64,000 nt of DNA from Candidatus Omnitrophota bacterium (GTDB lineage: Bacteria > Omnitrophota > Gorgyraeia > Gygaellales > Profunditerraquicolaceae): contig JAPLLV010000025.1 of assembly GCA_026387405.1 (NCBI GenBank), positions 44,009 to 108,008 of the forward strand, read 5' to 3'. The position numbers and the translations under genes were made by a program. Shown here one piece after another: positions 37,051 through 52,205 of the stretch (its first letter is position 1; the number at the start of each line of letters is the position of its first letter). The notes below the pieces were generated by a model that saw only the letters and a program-made list of their open reading frames with translations, did no database searches and was not told the origin of the DNA.

Positions 37051-38040
37051 ATGAAAACCGTTGGATTAACCTACGATTTAAAGACAGATTACAAATTTAA
37101 AGAAGGCGATCCGCAGGATGCCAACGCGGAGTTCGACCATCCTTCGACTATCGGCGTTATTGCCAAGGCCATAGAGTCGCAGGGGTACAAGGTAAAGAAG
37201 ATCGGCAATGTCACGGATGTACTGGAAAAATTAGATAACCTGGGAGTGGATATCGTTTTCAATATTTCCGAGGGCCTCTCGGGCAGGAACCGCGAATCCC
37301 AGGTGCCGATCTTGCTAGAGATGGCCGGTGTTCCTTTTGTGGGCGCCGACGCGCTTACCCTTGGCCTTACGCTCGATAAGATCATGGCCAAAAAAATATT
37401 TATCGCCGAAAAACTACCTACCCCGAAATTCTTTACGGTCAATACCGTGGAAGAACTGAATAACGCCGACCATTGTAAATTCCCCCTTATTGTTAAACCG
37501 CGATTCGAGGGTTCTTCCAAGGGCTTAAGCGACAGCTCGCGCGTGGAGAATATGGAAGAGTTAAAGATACAGGTAGAGCATACAATCTCCACCTATAAAC
37601 AGCCTGCCCTGATAGAAGAGTTTATCTCCGGCCAGGAATTTACCGTGGCCGTGGTTGGTAATGATCCCCCCGAAGCCCTGCCCGTGGTCCAGATAAAGAT
37701 CGACGGCAAGTTACAGTTGAACGATAAATTCTATACCTTTGCCAGAATAAAATCAGACAGGCTGGAATATATCTGTCCTGCTAAGATCCCCACGGAACTG
37801 AAGAACAAGCTTCAGGATCTAGCCGTCAGGACATATAACGCGGTTGAGTGCCGTGATTTCGGGAGGGTGGATTTCAGGGTGGATAGCGACGGTAAACCTT
37901 TTGTCTTGGAGATCAACCCTTTGCCCTCGCTCTCTACCGAAGACGTGTTTATGCTCTTGGCCAAGACAATAGGGATCACCTACGAAGAGATGCTTGACAA
38001 GATCCTGAAGGCAGCCTTAAAAAGGCACAATCTTAATTAA
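37051..38040 (+). CDS. D-alanine-D-alanine ligase-family ATP-grasp enzyme (copy 1)
   Basis: Ddl-like layout: N-terminal domain, then LIVKPRFEGSSKGL, the ATP-grasp lysine/Gly-rich loop, and C-terminal LEINPLPSL. Confidence 0.7.
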   Translation: MKTVGLTYDLKTDYKFKEGDPQDANAEFDHPSTIGVIAKAIESQGYKVKKIGNVTDVLEKLDNLGVDIVFNISEGLSGRNRESQVPILLEMAGVPFVGADALTLGLTLDKIMAKKIFIAEKLPTPKFFTVNTVEELNNADHCKFPLIVKPRFEGSSKGLSDSSRVENMEELKIQVEHTISTYKQPALIEEFISGQEFTVAVVGNDPPEALPVVQIKIDGKLQLNDKFYTFARIKSDRLEYICPAKIPTELKNKLQDLAVRTYNAVECRDFGRVDFRVDSDGKPFVLEINPLPSLSTEDVFMLLAKTIGITYEEMLDKILKAALKRHNLN

Positions 38041-38049
38041 AGGTATTAA

Positions 38050-39057
38050 ATGAAGATCGCGCTTACCTTTAACCTTAAAAAGAAAGACTCAACCAAACCG
38101 GCGGATTATTTTTCCGAGTTTGATTCCGAAGAGACCGTTGATGCGATCCGGGGCGCCCTGTACAAAAAAGGCCACAGCGTGGACCTGGTCGAGGCGCATC
38201 AGCAAAACCTGTTTTCTTATTTCCGGGATAACCGCGTGGATATGGTTTTTAACATTGCCGAAGGCACTTGCGGCAGGTTCCGCGAATCGGAGATCCCGGC
38301 CATACTGGATTATCTGGAAGTGCCTTACACCGGCTCAGACACATTTTCCCTGGCCCTGGCCTTAAATAAGGCCCTGACCAAAAAGATACTGCAGGCGGAA
38401 AATATTCCCACCCCGCGTTTCCAACTTTTCACTAAAGGTAACGAAGAGTTAAACCCTGACTTGATCTTTCCTTTGATCGTCAAGCCTAATTGCGAAGGCT
38501 CGGCCAAAGGCATCAATGCCGCTAATGTGGTACGCGACGAGAGCGCGCTTTTTAGAAAAGCGCGGGAGATAATAAAGGTTTATAGACAGGAGGCGCTGGC
38601 CGAGGAGTTCATTGAAGGGAAAGAACTAACGGTGGGTATCCTGGAAAACGGCAAGACCACGATCCTGCCGATACTGGAGATCGATTTTTCAAGCTGCGAA
38701 GGGAGCGGAGAGTATTTTTATTCCTGGAGGATGAAGGAATATCAGGGTGACGAACAGCAGAGGCTCACGCCCACTTTTCACTGCCCGGCGCGCCTGGATA
38801 AGGATACTGAAAGGCGCGTAAAAGAGGTGGCACTCAAGACCCATCACGCGGTGGGATGTCTAGATATCTCCCGTACCGATATACGTTTAAGCCGCGATAA
38901 CATCCCGTATGTCCTTGAGATAAATCCTTTGCCCGGGCTCGATCCCAAGGAATCTAATCTTCCCCTCATGGCCTATGCCGCGGGCATGAAATACGAAGAC
39001 CTTATTGAAGCGATCCTTATAAGCGCTGCTAAGCGTAAGAAAGCGGGGCTCAATTGA
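38050..39057 (+). CDS. D-alanine-D-alanine ligase-family ATP-grasp enzyme (copy 2)
   Basis: Paralogue of the upstream gene (LIVKPNCEGSAKGI; LEINPLPGL). Separated from it by 9 nt. Confidence 0.7.
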   Translation: MKIALTFNLKKKDSTKPADYFSEFDSEETVDAIRGALYKKGHSVDLVEAHQQNLFSYFRDNRVDMVFNIAEGTCGRFRESEIPAILDYLEVPYTGSDTFSLALALNKALTKKILQAENIPTPRFQLFTKGNEELNPDLIFPLIVKPNCEGSAKGINAANVVRDESALFRKAREIIKVYRQEALAEEFIEGKELTVGILENGKTTILPILEIDFSSCEGSGEYFYSWRMKEYQGDEQQRLTPTFHCPARLDKDTERRVKEVALKTHHAVGCLDISRTDIRLSRDNIPYVLEINPLPGLDPKESNLPLMAYAAGMKYEDLIEAILISAAKRKKAGLN

Positions 39058-40232
39058 CGAACGCGACCATAACCGAGGTTCAAAAGCTCCAGCCTGATGC
39101 GCCTGTCCGTAGATCCCAGCGGGCTCGCGATTACCAGCAGATAAGCCTGTATAAAGACGTTAATCCCCTGGATTGGGAGGATTGGCACTGGCAGCTCAAA
39201 AATAGGATCTGCACCAAGGAAGACCTTGCCCAGGTGATAGTTTTGAGCCCCGAAGAGGAAGAGGGCTTAAAAAAGGCAAGCGGAAAACTTTCTTTGGCCA
39301 TTACCCCATATTGGGCGACTTTAATGGACCCCGAAGATCCCAATTGTCCTATCCGGCGCCAGGCCGTGCCTACGGTGTACGAAACGCTTGTCGGTCCCCA
39401 CGAAATGGTTGATCCTTGCGCCGAAGACAGGGATTCTCCCGCCCCGCACCTGGTGCACCGTTATCCGGACAGGGTCTTGCTCCTAGCTACCGAACATTGC
39501 GCGATGTATTGCCGCCACTGCACCAGAAGGCGCCTTGTGGGGGAGACCAATAAAGAGGATAACTCGCCTTCCCGTTTTGATGCGGCTTTAGAATATTTAA
39601 AAGCGAACAAAAAGGTGCGGGATGTTTTGATCTCCGGGGGCGACCCGCTTACCCTGGAAGATGACGTAATCGAGGATCTGCTGCGCAAGATCCGCGACAT
39701 ATCGCATATTGAGTTCTTAAGGCTGGGTACGCGCGTGCCGGTGACATTGCCGCAGCGCATCAATGAGAAATTGGTTACCATGCTTAAGAAATATAACCCG
39801 CTCTGGATGAGTATCCATTTTAACCACCCCAAGGAGATAACCAAACGTTCTAAGATCGCCTGCGAAATGCTGGCAGATGCCGGTATCCCGCTGGGGAGCC
39901 AGAGTGTGCTCTTAAAAGGCATTAATGACCGTCCTTATATTATGAAGAAGCTGGTGCATGATTTATTGCAGATAAGGGTGCGGCCGTATTATATTTATCA
40001 GTGCGATCCCGTCCGGGGCACGCAGCATTTCCGCACCCCGGTTGCCGTAGGCATCAACATTATGGAGAAGCTGCGCGGCCATACCTCGGGCTACGCCGTG
40101 CCTACCTATGTCATTGACGGCCCCGGCGGCGGCGGAAAAATCCCCGTAGGCCCCAATTATATCCTTTCGCAGGCCAAAGGTAAGTACGTGCTCCGCAATT
40201 ACAAGGGTAAGATCTACACTTATCTGGAATAA
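39054..40232 (+). CDS. kamA: lysine 2,3-aminomutase (KamA-family radical SAM)
   Basis: HRYPDRVLLLATEHCAMYCRHCTRRR matches the KamA CX3CX2C region. The C-terminal half is KamA-like. TTG start overlaps the upstream stop (TTGA). Confidence 0.8.
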   Translation: MTNATITEVQKLQPDAPVRRSQRARDYQQISLYKDVNPLDWEDWHWQLKNRICTKEDLAQVIVLSPEEEEGLKKASGKLSLAITPYWATLMDPEDPNCPIRRQAVPTVYETLVGPHEMVDPCAEDRDSPAPHLVHRYPDRVLLLATEHCAMYCRHCTRRRLVGETNKEDNSPSRFDAALEYLKANKKVRDVLISGGDPLTLEDDVIEDLLRKIRDISHIEFLRLGTRVPVTLPQRINEKLVTMLKKYNPLWMSIHFNHPKEITKRSKIACEMLADAGIPLGSQSVLLKGINDRPYIMKKLVHDLLQIRVRPYYIYQCDPVRGTQHFRTPVAVGINIMEKLRGHTSGYAVPTYVIDGPGGGGKIPVGPNYILSQAKGKYVLRNYKGKIYTYLE

Positions 40233-40242
40233 GTTTTTCCGC

Positions 40243-40271
40243 TTGACCCTCCCCAATGGTTGGTATATAAT
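40243..40271 (+). promoter_or_regulatory. sigma70-like promoter
   Basis: TTGACC at 40243-48, 17 nt spacer, TATAAT at 40266-71. About 115 nt upstream of the EF-G-like ATG, which has an AAGGAG SD. Confidence 0.5.
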
Positions 40272-40387
40272 CAAGAAAATCGCTTTCAGCGATCTTCGCG
40301 GTAGTATAGAAAGCTATATATTTTCCATACTATAATAATTTTAATACCCTTACCTATATATAGCCGCAAGAAAAGGAGCTAGCCGCT

Positions 40388-42346
40388 ATGGAGCCTAAAG
40401 ATAAACGTAATTTTATCCTCTTGGGCCATGCCCAGTCCGGTAAAACCACGCTTTCTGAAAGTATCCTCTATTTAGCTAAGGCAACCAGCCGTAAAGGCAC
40501 TACCGCAGATGGTAATACGGTAAGCGATTACAATTTTGACGAGATTGAAAAAAAGAGCTCCATAAACGCCAGCCTGCTCTATTGTGATTATAAAGGCACG
40601 AGGATCCAGATGATCGATGCCCCCGGTTACGCGGATTTTTTAGGCGAGGTTATTTCCGGCTTACGCGCGGTAGATAGCGCGGTAGTGATAGTAGACGCGA
40701 CCGCGGGAGTTGAGGTAGGGACAGAGCGCGCCTGGCAGTTCCTGGAGGAATTCTCCCTACCCTGTATTATTTTCATTAATAAGACGGATAAACCCGAAGC
40801 CGATGTAAATAAGACCTTGTCGGATATCAAGTCGCGCTTTTCAAAGAGCGCGATGGTGGTCGATAAGCTTGACGCCCCGGAGTTAGTAGAGGCTATTGCC
40901 GAAAGCAATGATTCACTGCTGGAAAAATATTTAGAGGGTAAGGCCTTAACACCCGAAGAATTAGTTTCAGGGTTGCGTAAGGCGGTATTCGGCCGCAAGG
41001 TCTTTCCCGTAGTGATAGGTTCGGCCTCAACCGATAAAGGGGTAGCGGAGTTACTCGACCATGTTATAAAATATCTGCCGAATCCCCTGGAGCGCCAGCC
41101 TATCAAGGCGCGGCAGGCGGATAAACCGGATAGCGAGCAGGAATTAGCCTGTAGCGCAGACGGTCATCTAGCCGCCTTTGTCTTTAAGAATATTTCTGAC
41201 CCCTATGTGGGGCAGTTGACATTTTTACGTATTTTTTCCGGCACCCTGGCTTCGAACACCGCCTTTCACAATGTTAATAAAGAAACCAAAGAGCGCATCG
41301 GCACTATCTACATTATGCAGGGCAGAGAGCAAAAAGCCGTGGATACCGCCAGCTGCGGTGATATCGTGGCCCTGGCAAAATTAAAAGGGACCGCTGCTTC
41401 GGATTCCATCGGTAATGATAAGGGCCGCGTTATTTTTGAACCGATGGTATTCCCTGAACCGGCTATCTCGGCTTCGGTAAAGCCAAAATCGCGCGAAGAC
41501 GAAGAGAGGATTTCCGAGGCCCTACATAAATTAGCTGCGGAGGATCCTACTTTCAAGGTCACCCATGACCCCCAGACCAAGGAATTGATCATTTCAGGGC
41601 TAGGCGATCAGCACCTGGCGGTTATGGTAGGCAGGCTGCAAAAGCGTTTCAAGGTTGAAGTCGAACTTGGCAAGCCCAAGGTTTCCTATAAAGAGACGAT
41701 TACTAAGAGCGTCAAGGTGCAGGGAAAATTCAAACGTCAGTCAGGGGGCAGGGGCCAATACGGGGATGTCTGGATCGAGATCGAGCCTTTAGGACGGAGT
41801 GAGGGTTTTGAGTTCGTGGATAAGATTTTCGGCGGGGCTATCCCCAGGAATTTTATCCCCTCGGTTGAAAAGGGCGTGGTCAATGCCTTGGTTCAAGGGG
41901 CAGTTGCCGGTTATCCGATAGTTGATGTGCGGGTGAGGCTGGTAGACGGCTCATACCATGAGGTGGATTCCTCGGATATGGCTTTTCAGATCGCGGGGGG
42001 CATGGCTCTAAGAAAAGCCGTGCTTGCCGCCGGGCCCGTATTATTGGAGCCGATCATGGATGTAGAGATAACCATCCCGGAGGAGTGTTTGGGCGCAATA
42101 TCCGGAGATGTTAATTCCCGGCGCGGACGGATCATGGGTATGGATGTTAAAGCCAAATCCCAGATTATCAAGGCCACCGTTCCATTGTCGGAGATGTTTA
42201 CCTATGCCAATGATCTACGTTCCCTTACCGGGGGAAGAGGGACTTATATCATGCGTTTTTCGCATTACGAAGAGGTGCCGCACAAACAAGCCTCGACCAT
42301 TATCAGCCAGTATCAGGCCTCCAGGAAGCCCGAAGAAGAACAATAA
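40388..42346 (+). CDS. EF-G-family translational GTPase paralogue (divergent; switch-II His replaced)
   Basis: All EF-G domains are recognisable: G domain, domain II, and domains IV/V with SGGRGQYGDVWIE. G1 is GHAQSGKTT, switch I lacks RGITI, and switch II reads DAPGYADF instead of DTPGHxDF. G4 is NKTD. Confidence 0.75.
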   Translation: MEPKDKRNFILLGHAQSGKTTLSESILYLAKATSRKGTTADGNTVSDYNFDEIEKKSSINASLLYCDYKGTRIQMIDAPGYADFLGEVISGLRAVDSAVVIVDATAGVEVGTERAWQFLEEFSLPCIIFINKTDKPEADVNKTLSDIKSRFSKSAMVVDKLDAPELVEAIAESNDSLLEKYLEGKALTPEELVSGLRKAVFGRKVFPVVIGSASTDKGVAELLDHVIKYLPNPLERQPIKARQADKPDSEQELACSADGHLAAFVFKNISDPYVGQLTFLRIFSGTLASNTAFHNVNKETKERIGTIYIMQGREQKAVDTASCGDIVALAKLKGTAASDSIGNDKGRVIFEPMVFPEPAISASVKPKSREDEERISEALHKLAAEDPTFKVTHDPQTKELIISGLGDQHLAVMVGRLQKRFKVEVELGKPKVSYKETITKSVKVQGKFKRQSGGRGQYGDVWIEIEPLGRSEGFEFVDKIFGGAIPRNFIPSVEKGVVNALVQGAVAGYPIVDVRVRLVDGSYHEVDSSDMAFQIAGGMALRKAVLAAGPVLLEPIMDVEITIPEECLGAISGDVNSRRGRIMGMDVKAKSQIIKATVPLSEMFTYANDLRSLTGGRGTYIMRFSHYEEVPHKQASTIISQYQASRKPEEEQ

Positions 42347-42379: not shown

Positions 42380-43081
42380 ATGAAGATAAGCGTATTTTCT
42401 ATCTCTACTCTTACGCCGGGGAAATATAATATCAAGGACCAGCGCCTTGACGCCGTGGACAAAATAGTCAAGGCCAAGAAAAAAACCTATGTGCAGGTGG
42501 AGGTGGTCGGAGCGGAAGCGGTATTCGAAGCAGACGCGCTTCTGGCGCTTGAAGATATGCGTTCGGACCTGATCCTAAGGGACCTGGAGTTCATAGAGAC
42601 GCGCCTCGGCCGTTGCGGCGATGAGAAGGAAAAAGGACTTTTGCTCAAACTTAAAGGGATCCTGGAGAAAGAGCAGTTTCTTTTTAGCGCCGGCTTGGGG
42701 GAAGAAGAAATCCAGTCCATGGCAAGCTATAGTTTGGTAACCTTAAAACCGGTTGTTATGGCCAGGCAGGAAGAGACGGATAACCCCAATGATCTATTGG
42801 CCAGGGCCCTCAGAGAAAGCGGGTATTTGAGTTTTTTTACCGCCGGGGAGAAAGAGACGCGCGCCTGGTTGATCAGAAAAGGGACTTCTGCCTGGGAGGC
42901 CGCGGGGGTAATACATTCAGATATCCAGAAAGGGTTTATCCGCGCCGAGATCATCGGTTACGATGATTATATTAATGCCGGCGGCGAGACTCCGGCCAAG
43001 CAGCAGGGGAAGATGCGCCTGGAGCAAAAAGAATATGTGATGCAGGATTGCGATCTGGCGAATTTTAGGTTTAACAAATAA
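42380..43081 (+). CDS. YchF/Ola1-like protein lacking the P-loop and most of the G domain (coiled-coil + TGS domains retained)
   Basis: C-terminus TRAWLIRKGTSAWEAAGVIHSDIQKGFIRAEII…GKMRLEQKEYVMQDCDLANFRFN aligns closely to the YchF TGS domain. The N-terminus starts after the position of the Walker A motif. About 50 aa around G3/G4 are also missing. Confidence 0.7.
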   Translation: MKISVFSISTLTPGKYNIKDQRLDAVDKIVKAKKKTYVQVEVVGAEAVFEADALLALEDMRSDLILRDLEFIETRLGRCGDEKEKGLLLKLKGILEKEQFLFSAGLGEEEIQSMASYSLVTLKPVVMARQEETDNPNDLLARALRESGYLSFFTAGEKETRAWLIRKGTSAWEAAGVIHSDIQKGFIRAEIIGYDDYINAGGETPAKQQGKMRLEQKEYVMQDCDLANFRFNK

Positions 43082-50723: not shown

Positions 50724-52205
50724 ATGCAAAAAAATAAAAAAAGAGCAATAGCAAAAGGTGTTCTATATTTTGTTATTTGTTTCTTTGGTTTTGTAATCCC
50801 TGCTTCAGCAGAGGTTGCGGTAGCGGATAATAAAAATCTCACCTTCAATATCCTGCCATATCTTAGAACAGACGTAGTCACCTTAAAGAATAACATTGGC
50901 CTGGATAGCAGAAATAAAGACGACTCTTCGACTTATTTCGGTGTTGACTACAGTTTAGGATTCGACCTTAAATTTAAAGACAGCGGTCCCGAGGCATACC
51001 TGAAGTTAGAGAGAAACGGCCCCTATGACTACGATGCGCCGCTATTTATCCGTAATACATTAAGGACATCCACCGCGCAGGCAGAGAGGTACCGCGGAAA
51101 CGAACTATTACCTCACGTAGAGGAATTCTGGTATGACACTCCTTTATTTGAACTTCCTTTAAGGCTCAAGAGCGGACTTTTTGCTTACCATGCGGCTAAT
51201 GACCTCGCCGTACCCGCCAGCTACGAGAATTATTCACTTAGCTTATATAGAGAAAATGAAAATTTAAAGTGGCACTTTTATTATTGTAAACCAGATTTGG
51301 TTAATAAAAGTTACCTGGGGCCGCGCATTAAACAAGAGAGAGAGCAGGGTATCCATTATACGCCTAATAAGGCCAACTTTTTTGCTACAGACGCAGTTTT
51401 CACTTTCAAAAATAATTCCTTGCAACCCTATGTAGAGGTTCTTTCCGATGGTTCCGGAGATAGTCGCGCAAATCTTTTTTCTACGCCCACGCATAATGAT
51501 TTATTGGGCACTCTCGGCCTTGCCTGGAATTCCACTTTTGATAAATTATCTATAGCGATAGAAACAGCCAGGAATTTCGGAAAGGTACAGAGCAGCGATG
51601 AGAATTTCAAGGACGTAGAGCATTGCGGGTATCTTTTATACGCGGATGCCGCGTATAATTTTGAACGGATAATCCCGCATTCCAGGTTTGTCCTTGCTTC
51701 AGGCAACAAAGTTACTACGGATATGGTAGATAATGGAGATGAGGTGTTGACCAGCGGCAAAAATCGTGCTTTTAGCGCCTACTCGCCGTTCAATACCAAT
51801 TTATTAGATTCGATATATCCTGACGCGAATAATCTGCCTTTAGTGGCTATGGGCGCAGGCAATGGGTTGAATTACGGCATCAACCGTCCCACCACCTTTG
51901 GAGACCCCCGGTTATTTGTTCTTGACTGGTGGTATTTAAGGGCAATGGAAAGAGGGGTAGGCACCTTTGAAGGATCAAGTAAGATGCTCTCACCCGATTT
52001 AGGCAACGAATTGGATCTATCTTTTAATTACGAACTTAATAAAAATATTACTCTTGGCCTGTTGAGCGGTTGTTTTTTACCGGGGAGATATTACAAGGAA
52101 GACAGGGATGATACAGAAGGTAGTCTTTTCACCCCCTTTGTGCGGGGCGATGGCGAGGCCGACCCTGCCTATCAGATCGAATTAAGCTGTACTTTAACTT
52201 TTTAA
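50724..52205 (+). CDS. secreted protein, probable outer-membrane beta-barrel
   Basis: N-terminal signal peptide, alternating amphipathic beta-strand pattern, C-terminal …LSCTLTF ending in Phe. Confidence 0.5.
   Translation: MQKNKKRAIAKGVLYFVICFFGFVIPASAEVAVADNKNLTFNILPYLRTDVVTLKNNIGLDSRNKDDSSTYFGVDYSLGFDLKFKDSGPEAYLKLERNGPYDYDAPLFIRNTLRTSTAQAERYRGNELLPHVEEFWYDTPLFELPLRLKSGLFAYHAANDLAVPASYENYSLSLYRENENLKWHFYYCKPDLVNKSYLGPRIKQEREQGIHYTPNKANFFATDAVFTFKNNSLQPYVEVLSDGSGDSRANLFSTPTHNDLLGTLGLAWNSTFDKLSIAIETARNFGKVQSSDENFKDVEHCGYLLYADAAYNFERIIPHSRFVLASGNKVTTDMVDNGDEVLTSGKNRAFSAYSPFNTNLLDSIYPDANNLPLVAMGAGNGLNYGINRPTTFGDPRLFVLDWWYLRAMERGVGTFEGSSKMLSPDLGNELDLSFNYELNKNITLGLLSGCFLPGRYYKEDRDDTEGSLFTPFVRGDGEADPAYQIELSCTLTF

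Follow-up and report, generated by a model that had tools for sequence, protein, structure and literature searches.

An EF-G homologue with tyrosine at the catalytic position

The window analysed here is a 64,000-nucleotide stretch of contig JAPLLV010000025.1 from a Candidatus Omnitrophota bacterium, and at 40,388–42,346 of its forward strand lies a gene for a homologue of the translational GTPase EF-G. The sequence of the protein and the gene order at related loci argue strongly that this gene is an accessory EF-G paralogue of the EFG II (EF-G2) subfamily. The features of the gene are listed below, with coordinates of the window.

40388..42346 (+): EF-G paralogue open reading frame, ATG start, 652 residues, assigned to the EFG II (EF-G2) type
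40424..40447 (+): G1/P-loop GHAQSGKT, residues 13–20 (alignment); Gly13 and Leu22 are EFG II signature residues
40550..40564 (+): G2/switch I, KKSSI in the place of RGITI, residues 55–59; Ser58 at the position of the Mg-coordinating Thr
40616..40630 (+): G3/switch II, DAPGY in the place of DTPGH, residues 77–81; Tyr81 at the position of the catalytic His (HMMER alignment)
40778..40789 (+): G4 motif NKTD, intact, residues 131–134; K132 and D134 invariant
40850..40882 (+): site of the G′ deletion, residues ~155–165, about 46 residues missing (alignment)
41018..41029 (+): G5 motif GSAS, intact, residues 211–214 (alignment)
41675..42031 (+): domain IV with the canonical EF-G tip loops KRQSGGRGQYG and DGSYHEVDSS (Pfam, alignment)

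The overall architecture is that of EF-G. The original prediction held that all EF-G domains are present, and five Pfam domains are indeed found (GTP_EFTU, residues 5–232; EF-G_D2, 262–341; EFG_III, 355–429; EFG_IV, 430–548; EFG_C, 551–636), but the deletion in the G′ insert had been overlooked. The alignment to canonical EF-G is split in two because these ~46 residues are absent. The missing stretch is the β-sheet part of G′ after about residue 159, and the acidic helix downstream of it, AESNDSLLEKYLEG, is kept. An AlphaFold2 (AF2) model of the 652-residue protein (pLDDT 86.6, pTM 0.81) has the standard five-domain EF-G fold, and in a Foldseek search of the PDB with this model, structures of every EF-G type were matched to about the same degree, with no discrimination between subfamilies. 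In domain IV, Lys449 and Arg450 occupy EFG II type II positions, while G453, G454, G456, Q457, Y458, G459, H524, D527, S528 and S529 are invariant in both types of EF-G.

Alignment by HMMER to Thermus thermophilus (Tth) EF-G bears out two of the expected substitutions: GHAQSGKT stands in place of AHIDAGKT, with Ile/Asp of the P-loop replaced by Ala15/Gln16 and His14 kept, and Tyr81, not His, falls at the catalytic position of switch II. The RGITI motif of switch I had been described as absent. KKSSI aligns there, so that the threonine is exchanged for Ser58 and not simply lost. Among the matches listed, 120 Omnitrophota relatives of about 650 residues are 72–95% identical to the window protein, and all 120 have tyrosine at the histidine position, as D[TASV]PGY; their G2 region is a conserved E(R/K)(K/R)(S/N)SIN. 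Because it is invariant in this set, Tyr81 is neither chance nor a sequencing accident or an artefact of alignment.

The sequence marks of the EFG II subfamily

Four EF-G subfamilies were defined by Margus, Remm and Tenson in 2011 (PMC3150367). According to that survey, EFG II is marked by a G1 motif GhxxxGKT, by loss of RGITI with Ser for Thr, by Gly16, Leu25, Ser61, Thr291, Gly333 and Lys352, and by Lys471/Lys472 in domain IV; the EFG I counterparts are Ala at 16, Thr at 25, Ile, Val or Leu at 291, Ala at 333 and Gly at 352. Leu25 is 99% conserved in EFG II, and Thr291 is found in 81% of EFG II (PMC3150367). Positions 333 and 352 are type I positions of domain II, and at 352 Arg also occurs beside Lys in EFG II. 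The discriminating positions are numbered on 1WDT, the structure of T. thermophilus EF-G-2, whose sequence was confirmed over residues 8–489. At positions 16, 25, 61, 291, 333, 352, 471 and 472, the window protein aligns with Gly, Leu, Ser, Asn, Gly, Lys, Lys and Arg, and the canonical EF-Gs of Omnitrophota described below have Ala, Thr, Thr, Val/Ile, Ala, Gly, Ile/Val and Gln. In the numbering of the window protein, the first six are Gly13, Leu22, Ser58, Asn268, Gly312 and Lys331, and five of the six subfamily-discriminating positions are of EFG II type. KKSSI fits the “r/kxxSI” variants given for EFG II (PMC3150367), and the traits that the subfamily retains are all kept: DxPG as DAPG, NKxD as NKTD, (g)SAx as GSAS and the acidic G′ patch as AESNDSLLEKYLEG.

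The closest relatives point the same way. When the core of the G domain (residues 7–151) is compared with the PDB, the best match is T. thermophilus EF-G-2 (1WDT), at 106.9 bits against 85–89 for canonical EF-Gs. All 1.84 billion cluster representatives (50% identity) were scanned exhaustively with HMMER, and the nearest 150 were analysed. Only seven of them keep histidine at the catalytic position, and five of these seven are canonical EFG I. In the remaining 143 the residue is Tyr (71), Phe (30), Asp (9) or Ser, Ala, Asn, Leu and others, and AHIDAGKT and RGITI are lacking as well. The catalytic His is thus generally lost in the EFG II subfamily. In a neighbour-joining tree (distance only, no bootstrap), the query nests in the non-His set with its Omnitrophota relatives and the sister clusters P0121 and P0122. 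Among NCBIfam models, NF009381 (PRK12740.1-5, an “elongation factor G” subfamily) is passed at 829.8 bits against a cut-off of 583, and the EF-G equivalog TIGR00484 is barely passed, at 679.4 against 659.4; this marginal pass accounts for the database name “elongation factor G”.

All the features that first drew attention to the gene are defining traits of a known subfamily, and the His to Tyr exchange has already been described structurally in a characterised member. The suggestion that the protein might be another non-canonical translation factor was right in spirit, although the listed features carry no novelty of their own.

A canonical fusA in the phylum

The position of the gene relative to the str operon was examined by scanning one genome per GTDB species. 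About 50 Omnitrophota EFG II loci were fetched, at 74% down to 48% identity, some of them carrying the submitter label Planctomycetales. The EFG II gene lies outside the str operon in all of these loci and is never adjoined by rpsL or rpsG. In about 40 of them the gene order is ATP-grasp, KamA-like radical SAM, EFG II gene, a gene with only the YchF_C domain, and purH. A tblastn search of the sequence flanking 51 Omnitrophota EFG II loci, up to 10 kb, found neither S12, S7, EF-Tu or S10 nor a second EF-G. The fusA loci of Firmicutes recovered by the same scan read S12-S7-EF-G(-EF-Tu).

The canonical EF-G family of Omnitrophota was reached through the canonical cluster P0215, itself in a str operon among genes that all fall into singleton clusters, as a bridge. 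Clusters P0139 and P0214 had been considered as a route to it and were rejected, P0139 being from Dictyoglomus and P0214 from Eubacterium/Lachnospiraceae. Through P0215, more than 200 clusters of 688–705-residue EF-Gs were obtained; those with a name belong, with one exception, to Candidatus Omnitrophica or Omnitrophota. Those carrying an Omnitrophota name have the canonical motifs, AHIDAGKTT and DTPGH(V/I)DF in 119 of 119 and ERGITI in 107 of 119. For each of the six that were looked up, the gene order is rpoC-rpsL-rpsG-fusA(-tuf-rpsJ), in one case on the 1.82-Mb chromosome CP070807.1. The query is 32–34% identical to these canonical EF-Gs over domains I–II and 45–53% over domains III–V. Since the phylum has a housekeeping fusA in the str operon, the window gene is best read as an extra copy. 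Its predicted status as a paralogue, distinct from the housekeeping EF-G, is supported by its position at the loci examined and by the canonical fusA of the phylum; a canonical fusA in the source genome itself would be expected from its occurrence across the phylum.

A number of observations count against this assignment. Position 291 is Asn268 and not Thr (N, S or T in relatives), a polar residue unlike the hydrophobic one of EFG I. Over the whole length, the distances to EFG II representatives (0.88–0.95) and to the Dictyoglomus EF-G (0.95) are nearly equal, and canonical Tth EF-G scores higher (599 bits) than Tth EF-G-2 (432 bits), because domains III–V are well conserved. The NCBIfam models for EF-G2 are missed, NF009377 at 584.7 against 890 and NF058620 (Bacteroidota EF-G2) at 516.9 against 1000; these models describe other sub-branches of EFG II. 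Conservation within the phylum is tight, at 72–76% identity across the 120 listed clusters, which is unusual for the fast-evolving EFG II. Finally, no assembly with both types of EF-G was found when the whole-genome shotgun prefixes and the names of metagenome-assembled genomes (MAGs) in the EFG II and canonical lists were compared. The MAG RIFCSPLOWO2_12_FULL_51_8, searched for among the canonical EF-G matches, was not found there, and a literature search on Omnitrophota and EF-G returned nothing relevant. An origin by chimerism or gene conversion, with an EFG II-like G domain joined to EFG I-like domains III–V, was considered and rejected, because EFG II residues also occur in domain II (Gly333, Lys352) and domain IV (Lys471) and because domains III–V are only 45–53% identical to the phylum's own canonical EF-G.

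Two canonical loci have peculiarities of their own. On contig JBMXYS010000014.1 (GCA_053996315.1), fusA belongs to a compact rplK-rplA-rplJ-rplL-rpoB-rpoC-rpsL-rpsG-fusA-tuf-S10-spc super-operon that has no L30 gene between S5 and L15. At 90% identity, its S12, S7, EF-Tu, S10 and L2 each form a cluster of one in a set of about 15 billion proteins, and the nearest named relatives of its EF-G are from Omnitrophota, at 61–64% identity. On CP070807.1 (L088, 6227–6689), fusA is followed only by a 154-residue fragment of an EF-Tu G domain and then an ALAD fragment, which suggests a truncated or frameshifted tuf there, or an assembly error.

Promoter-like element and leader

Upstream of the EFG II gene, the following elements are recognised.

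40243..40271 (+): sigma-70-type promoter-like element TTGACC-17 nt-TATAAT, in agreement with the consensus at 11 of 12 positions
40272..40387 (+): predicted 5′ leader, ~108–111 nt if transcription starts just after 40271
40275–40297: hairpin with a 10-bp stem, directly after the −10 hexamer
40307–40336 (+): second, weaker promoter-like site in the leader
about 40373–40379 (+): Shine-Dalgarno sequence AAGGAG

The element CTTGACC-17-TATAAT recurs upstream of the gene in 18 of 20 orthologous loci, 67–151 nt before the ATG, and would function as a promoter. A strong promoter at 40243 with a long 5′ untranslated region had been predicted. The promoter-like element stands, whereas the long leader is particular to the source genome: the ~110-nt length is not conserved, and most relatives would have about 35–45 nt. 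A riboswitch or other leader element was considered for this region and rejected, since Rfam gives no match in the leader, folding is not in excess of expectation (z = −0.24) and the length is not conserved. The hairpin at 40275–40297 was scored as a terminator-like site of the minus strand, and no gene ends there in that direction; read from the plus strand, it would form the 5′ end of the EFG II mRNA.

A YchF-like neighbour without a G domain

The gene that follows encodes a reduced relative of the nucleoside triphosphatase (NTPase) YchF.

42380..43081 (+): 233-residue YchF-like protein with helical and TGS domains and no NTPase (G) domain (Pfam, YchF alignment)

This reading frame starts 33 nt past the stop codon of the EFG II gene with no terminator-like site in between, an arrangement in which the two genes are probably co-transcribed. 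The protein aligns to YchF structures only over the helical and the C-terminal TGS (YchF-GTPase_C) domains, and three deletions relative to YchF take out P-loop, switch regions and G4/G5. A Walker A motif is lacking from all of 40 orthologues. In about 39 Omnitrophota species the YchF-like gene is the neighbour of the EFG II gene, with gaps mostly from −4 to +70 nt, and the adjacency holds even where the EFG II protein is only 51–55% identical. At EFG II-like loci of other phyla, the same scan found no such neighbour. A functional link between the two proteins is plausible.

Comparison with characterised relatives

The founding member of EFG II is T. thermophilus EF-G-2 (TTHA1498; PDB 1WDT/2DY1). 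It shares GHA(G/Q)SGKTTL, DAPGY.DF.GE and AGV.VGTERAW with the query (in 1WDT, GHAGSGKTTL, DAPGYGDF and VGTERAW), as well as the EFG II signature residues, a gene outside the str operon and the five EF-G domains. The Thermus protein differs in its full-length G′ (665 residues in all), a TKLD motif at G4, a degenerate G5 and much more diverged domains II–V, whereas the Omnitrophota protein has NKTD and GSA intact, the ~46-residue G′ deletion and near-canonical domains III–V. Both intrinsic and ribosome-dependent GTPase have been reported for Tth EF-G-2, together with translocation activity.

Mycobacterium smegmatis EF-G2 (MsmEF-G2; PDB 9K0Z/9K10) is likewise of EFG II type and has lost RGITI, and its catalytic His88 is replaced by Tyr98. 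It has no ribosome-dependent GTPase, is non-essential beside the canonical EF-G1 and has been proposed to trap post-translocation ribosomes in times of stress. Its full-length score against the query is 447 bits; G1, G4 and G5 are degenerate and the C-terminus of domain V is shorter, all of which are intact in the query. In Bacteroides thetaiotaomicron, fusA2 (BT2167) is induced when carbon is limiting, and it encodes what has been described as a weak translocase. This protein resembles the query as an accessory EF-G paralogue with its own promoter (a regulated one in B. thetaiotaomicron) but belongs to another EFG II sub-branch, with about 717 residues and “YGYSV” at G2. The canonical EF-G of Omnitrophota itself (P0425, P0439, P0407) has the same five domains, an identical domain IV tip and many of the same ribosome-contact residues, and is set apart from the query by AHIDAGKTT, ERGITI, DTPGH, a full G′ (688–705 residues) and its place in the str operon.

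A second EFG II-like subgroup also occurs in Omnitrophota. Its members have about 685 residues, are 55–56% identical and P0122-like, and carry Tyr at the His position with a longer G′. At the loci L045 (285–3730) and L051 (2742–8309), their genes lie directly upstream of yebC/TACO1-ruvC-ruvA-ruvB-queH, with no YchF-like gene beside them. Two reading frames for LAGLIDADG endonucleases lie upstream in L051.

Proposed function and alternative readings

With GK(T), DxPG, NKxD and SA all present, the nucleotide pocket is complete, and the protein would be expected to bind guanine nucleotide. It would dock on the ribosome as EF-G does, through the retained acidic helix of G′, domains III–V and a domain IV tip that would reach the decoding centre; the negatively charged G′ region has been linked to the L7/L12 stalk (Margus et al., PMC3150367). 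The canonical activation apparatus is missing, with His replaced by Tyr81, Ile/Asp of the P-loop by Ala15/Gln16 and Arg-Gly-Ile of switch I by Lys-Lys-Ser, and in mycobacterial EF-G1 the same positions are described as contacts to the sarcin–ricin loop (SRL) and as the hydrophobic gate. We infer a translocase-like factor that binds GTP and the factor site and inserts domain IV into the A site, with non-canonical energetics. By analogy with the characterised relatives, it may serve as an alternative, slower or differently energised translocase and ribosome binder under, for example, nutrient or energy limitation, expressed from its own conserved sigma-70-type promoter and probably together with the G-domain-less YchF-like protein. 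For the specific role of a condition-specific alternative translocase, we regard the chances as balanced.

Whether such a factor would hydrolyse GTP does not follow from the tyrosine. The original prediction was of a protein that hydrolyses GTP poorly or not at all, and this cannot be derived from Tyr alone: Tth EF-G-2, with GHAGSGKT and DAPGY, hydrolyses GTP and translocates, while MsmEF-G2 lacks ribosome-dependent GTPase. Because the G domain is closest to that of the GTP-hydrolysing Thermus protein, residual ribosome-stimulated or intrinsic GTPase activity has roughly even odds. The form in which the predicted defect comes closest to a concrete mechanism is that of a GTPase-dead, hibernation-like ribosome trap after the manner of MsmEF-G2, which would bind non-rotated or post-translocation 70S ribosomes without GTP hydrolysis, would not translocate and would slow translation in stress. 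We consider this somewhat unlikely, and as a mechanistic variant inside EFG II it would leave the family assignment as it is. The mycobacterial protein has the same His to Tyr exchange, with Tyr98 turned from the γ-phosphate, the hydrophobic-gate and SRL-contacting residues are lost here as well (Ala15/Gln16; RGITI to KKSSI), and the shortened G′ could weaken activation stimulated by L7/L12. Against this, the nucleotide motifs are far more intact than in MsmEF-G2 (His14, NKTD and GSA against GPSGG, TKLD and no G5), the G domain is closer to GTPase-active Tth EF-G-2 (149 against 126 bits), and there is no variation in the tip loops of domain IV that serve translocation. The condition-specific translocase is favoured over a pure trap on the grounds that the G domain is closer to Thermus and that G1, G4 and G5 are better kept than in the mycobacterial protein.

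Three further alternatives were weighed. That it is the main or only EF-G of the organism, in a phylum translocating with a His-less factor, would agree with the high conservation and wide occurrence of the family in Omnitrophota, with the marginal pass of TIGR00484 and with the lack of a second EF-G in the 64-kb window. This is very improbable in view of the abundant Omnitrophota-labelled canonical EF-Gs in str operons and the location of the query gene outside the str operon at every locus examined; in the 2011 survey, moreover, EFG II always occurs with another EF-G, and genomes with a single EF-G always have EFG I (PMC3150367). Equally hard to credit is a recycling-type EF-G (spdEFG2/mtEF-G2) paired with a translocation-type spdEFG1, a pairing known from Spirochaetes and Planctomycetes. 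Omnitrophota are classed with the Planctomycetes–Verrucomicrobia–Chlamydiae (PVC) group and several of the MAGs are labelled Planctomycetales, but mitochondrial EF-G2/RRF2 (291–304 bits) and mtEF-G1 (364 bits) score well below the 599 bits of canonical EF-G, mtEF-G2 keeps the catalytic His along with motifs G1–G5, and the str-operon EF-G of Omnitrophota is an ordinary EFG I whose switch I has no KDG insert. In the alignment the query, too, has no switch I insertion relative to canonical EF-G. Least probable of all is a tetracycline ribosomal protection protein of the Tet(M)/Tet(O)/Tet(Q) kind. Ribosome protection had been among the functions first proposed, and the protein belongs to the same superfamily and gives partial matches to tet_protect models; the tetracycline-type function is nevertheless unsupported, as NF012153 reaches 328.9 bits against a cut-off of 775, all specific Tet models remain far under their cut-offs, searches of the PDB place Tet proteins far behind EF-Gs, the tip of domain IV is still of EF-G type (SYHEVDSS, GGRGQYG), and the gene stands in a housekeeping context with no resistance island.

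The possible partnership with the YchF-like neighbour invites a further, more speculative proposal. The EF-G2-type factor and the YchF remnant could form a dedicated two-protein module with a conserved promoter of its own, in which the remnant acts as a ribosome-binding adaptor or regulator and the pair supports elongation at low GTP cost, or idling elongation, in small, energy-limited cells. We hold this to be doubtful.

Genomic neighbourhood

Directly upstream of the EFG II promoter, at 37,051–40,232 on the plus strand, lie two D-Ala-D-Ala-ligase-like ATP-grasp genes followed by a gene for a KamA-family radical SAM aminomutase. With the AblA model (TIGR03820) this aminomutase reaches 515, the cut-off being 525, and with EpmB 241, the cut-off being 369. 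The ATP-grasp/KamA order upstream of the EFG II gene is kept in about 35 Omnitrophota loci, and the group may represent a pathway of β-amino-acid ligation. Positions 1–37,000 of the window form a large envelope-glycosylation island with at least seven PMT_2-type glycosyltransferases and many GT2/GT4 genes. Radical SAM proteins are also encoded there, four of them B12-binding and one of the others with a SPASM domain, as is a TPR/GDSL protein. The G+C content of the island is 0.35–0.44, compared with about 0.50 in the housekeeping block from 38 kb on. Further downstream, at 50,724–52,205 (+), a 493-residue reading frame has no Pfam match at E ≤ 0.001.

Implications

EFG II/EF-G2 proteins have been known by sequence since 2011, structurally since 2005 and biochemically since 2007. 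Particular to the Omnitrophota clade are its presence in many species at high conservation, the G′ deletion, the near-canonical domains III–V, the gene's own conserved promoter and the NTPase-less YchF neighbour. The value of the finding is modest and lies in documenting, across a candidate phylum that has been little studied, an EFG II sub-branch that is large and conserved to an unusual degree. The one element that we did not find described is the tight linkage, throughout the phylum, to a YchF homologue lacking the NTPase domain, and it may deserve a separate look; if true, the two-protein module would be a new partnership for both protein families. With its shortened G′ and fully intact nucleotide pocket, the protein also offers a clean natural test case of whether an EF-G with tyrosine in place of the catalytic histidine hydrolyses GTP.

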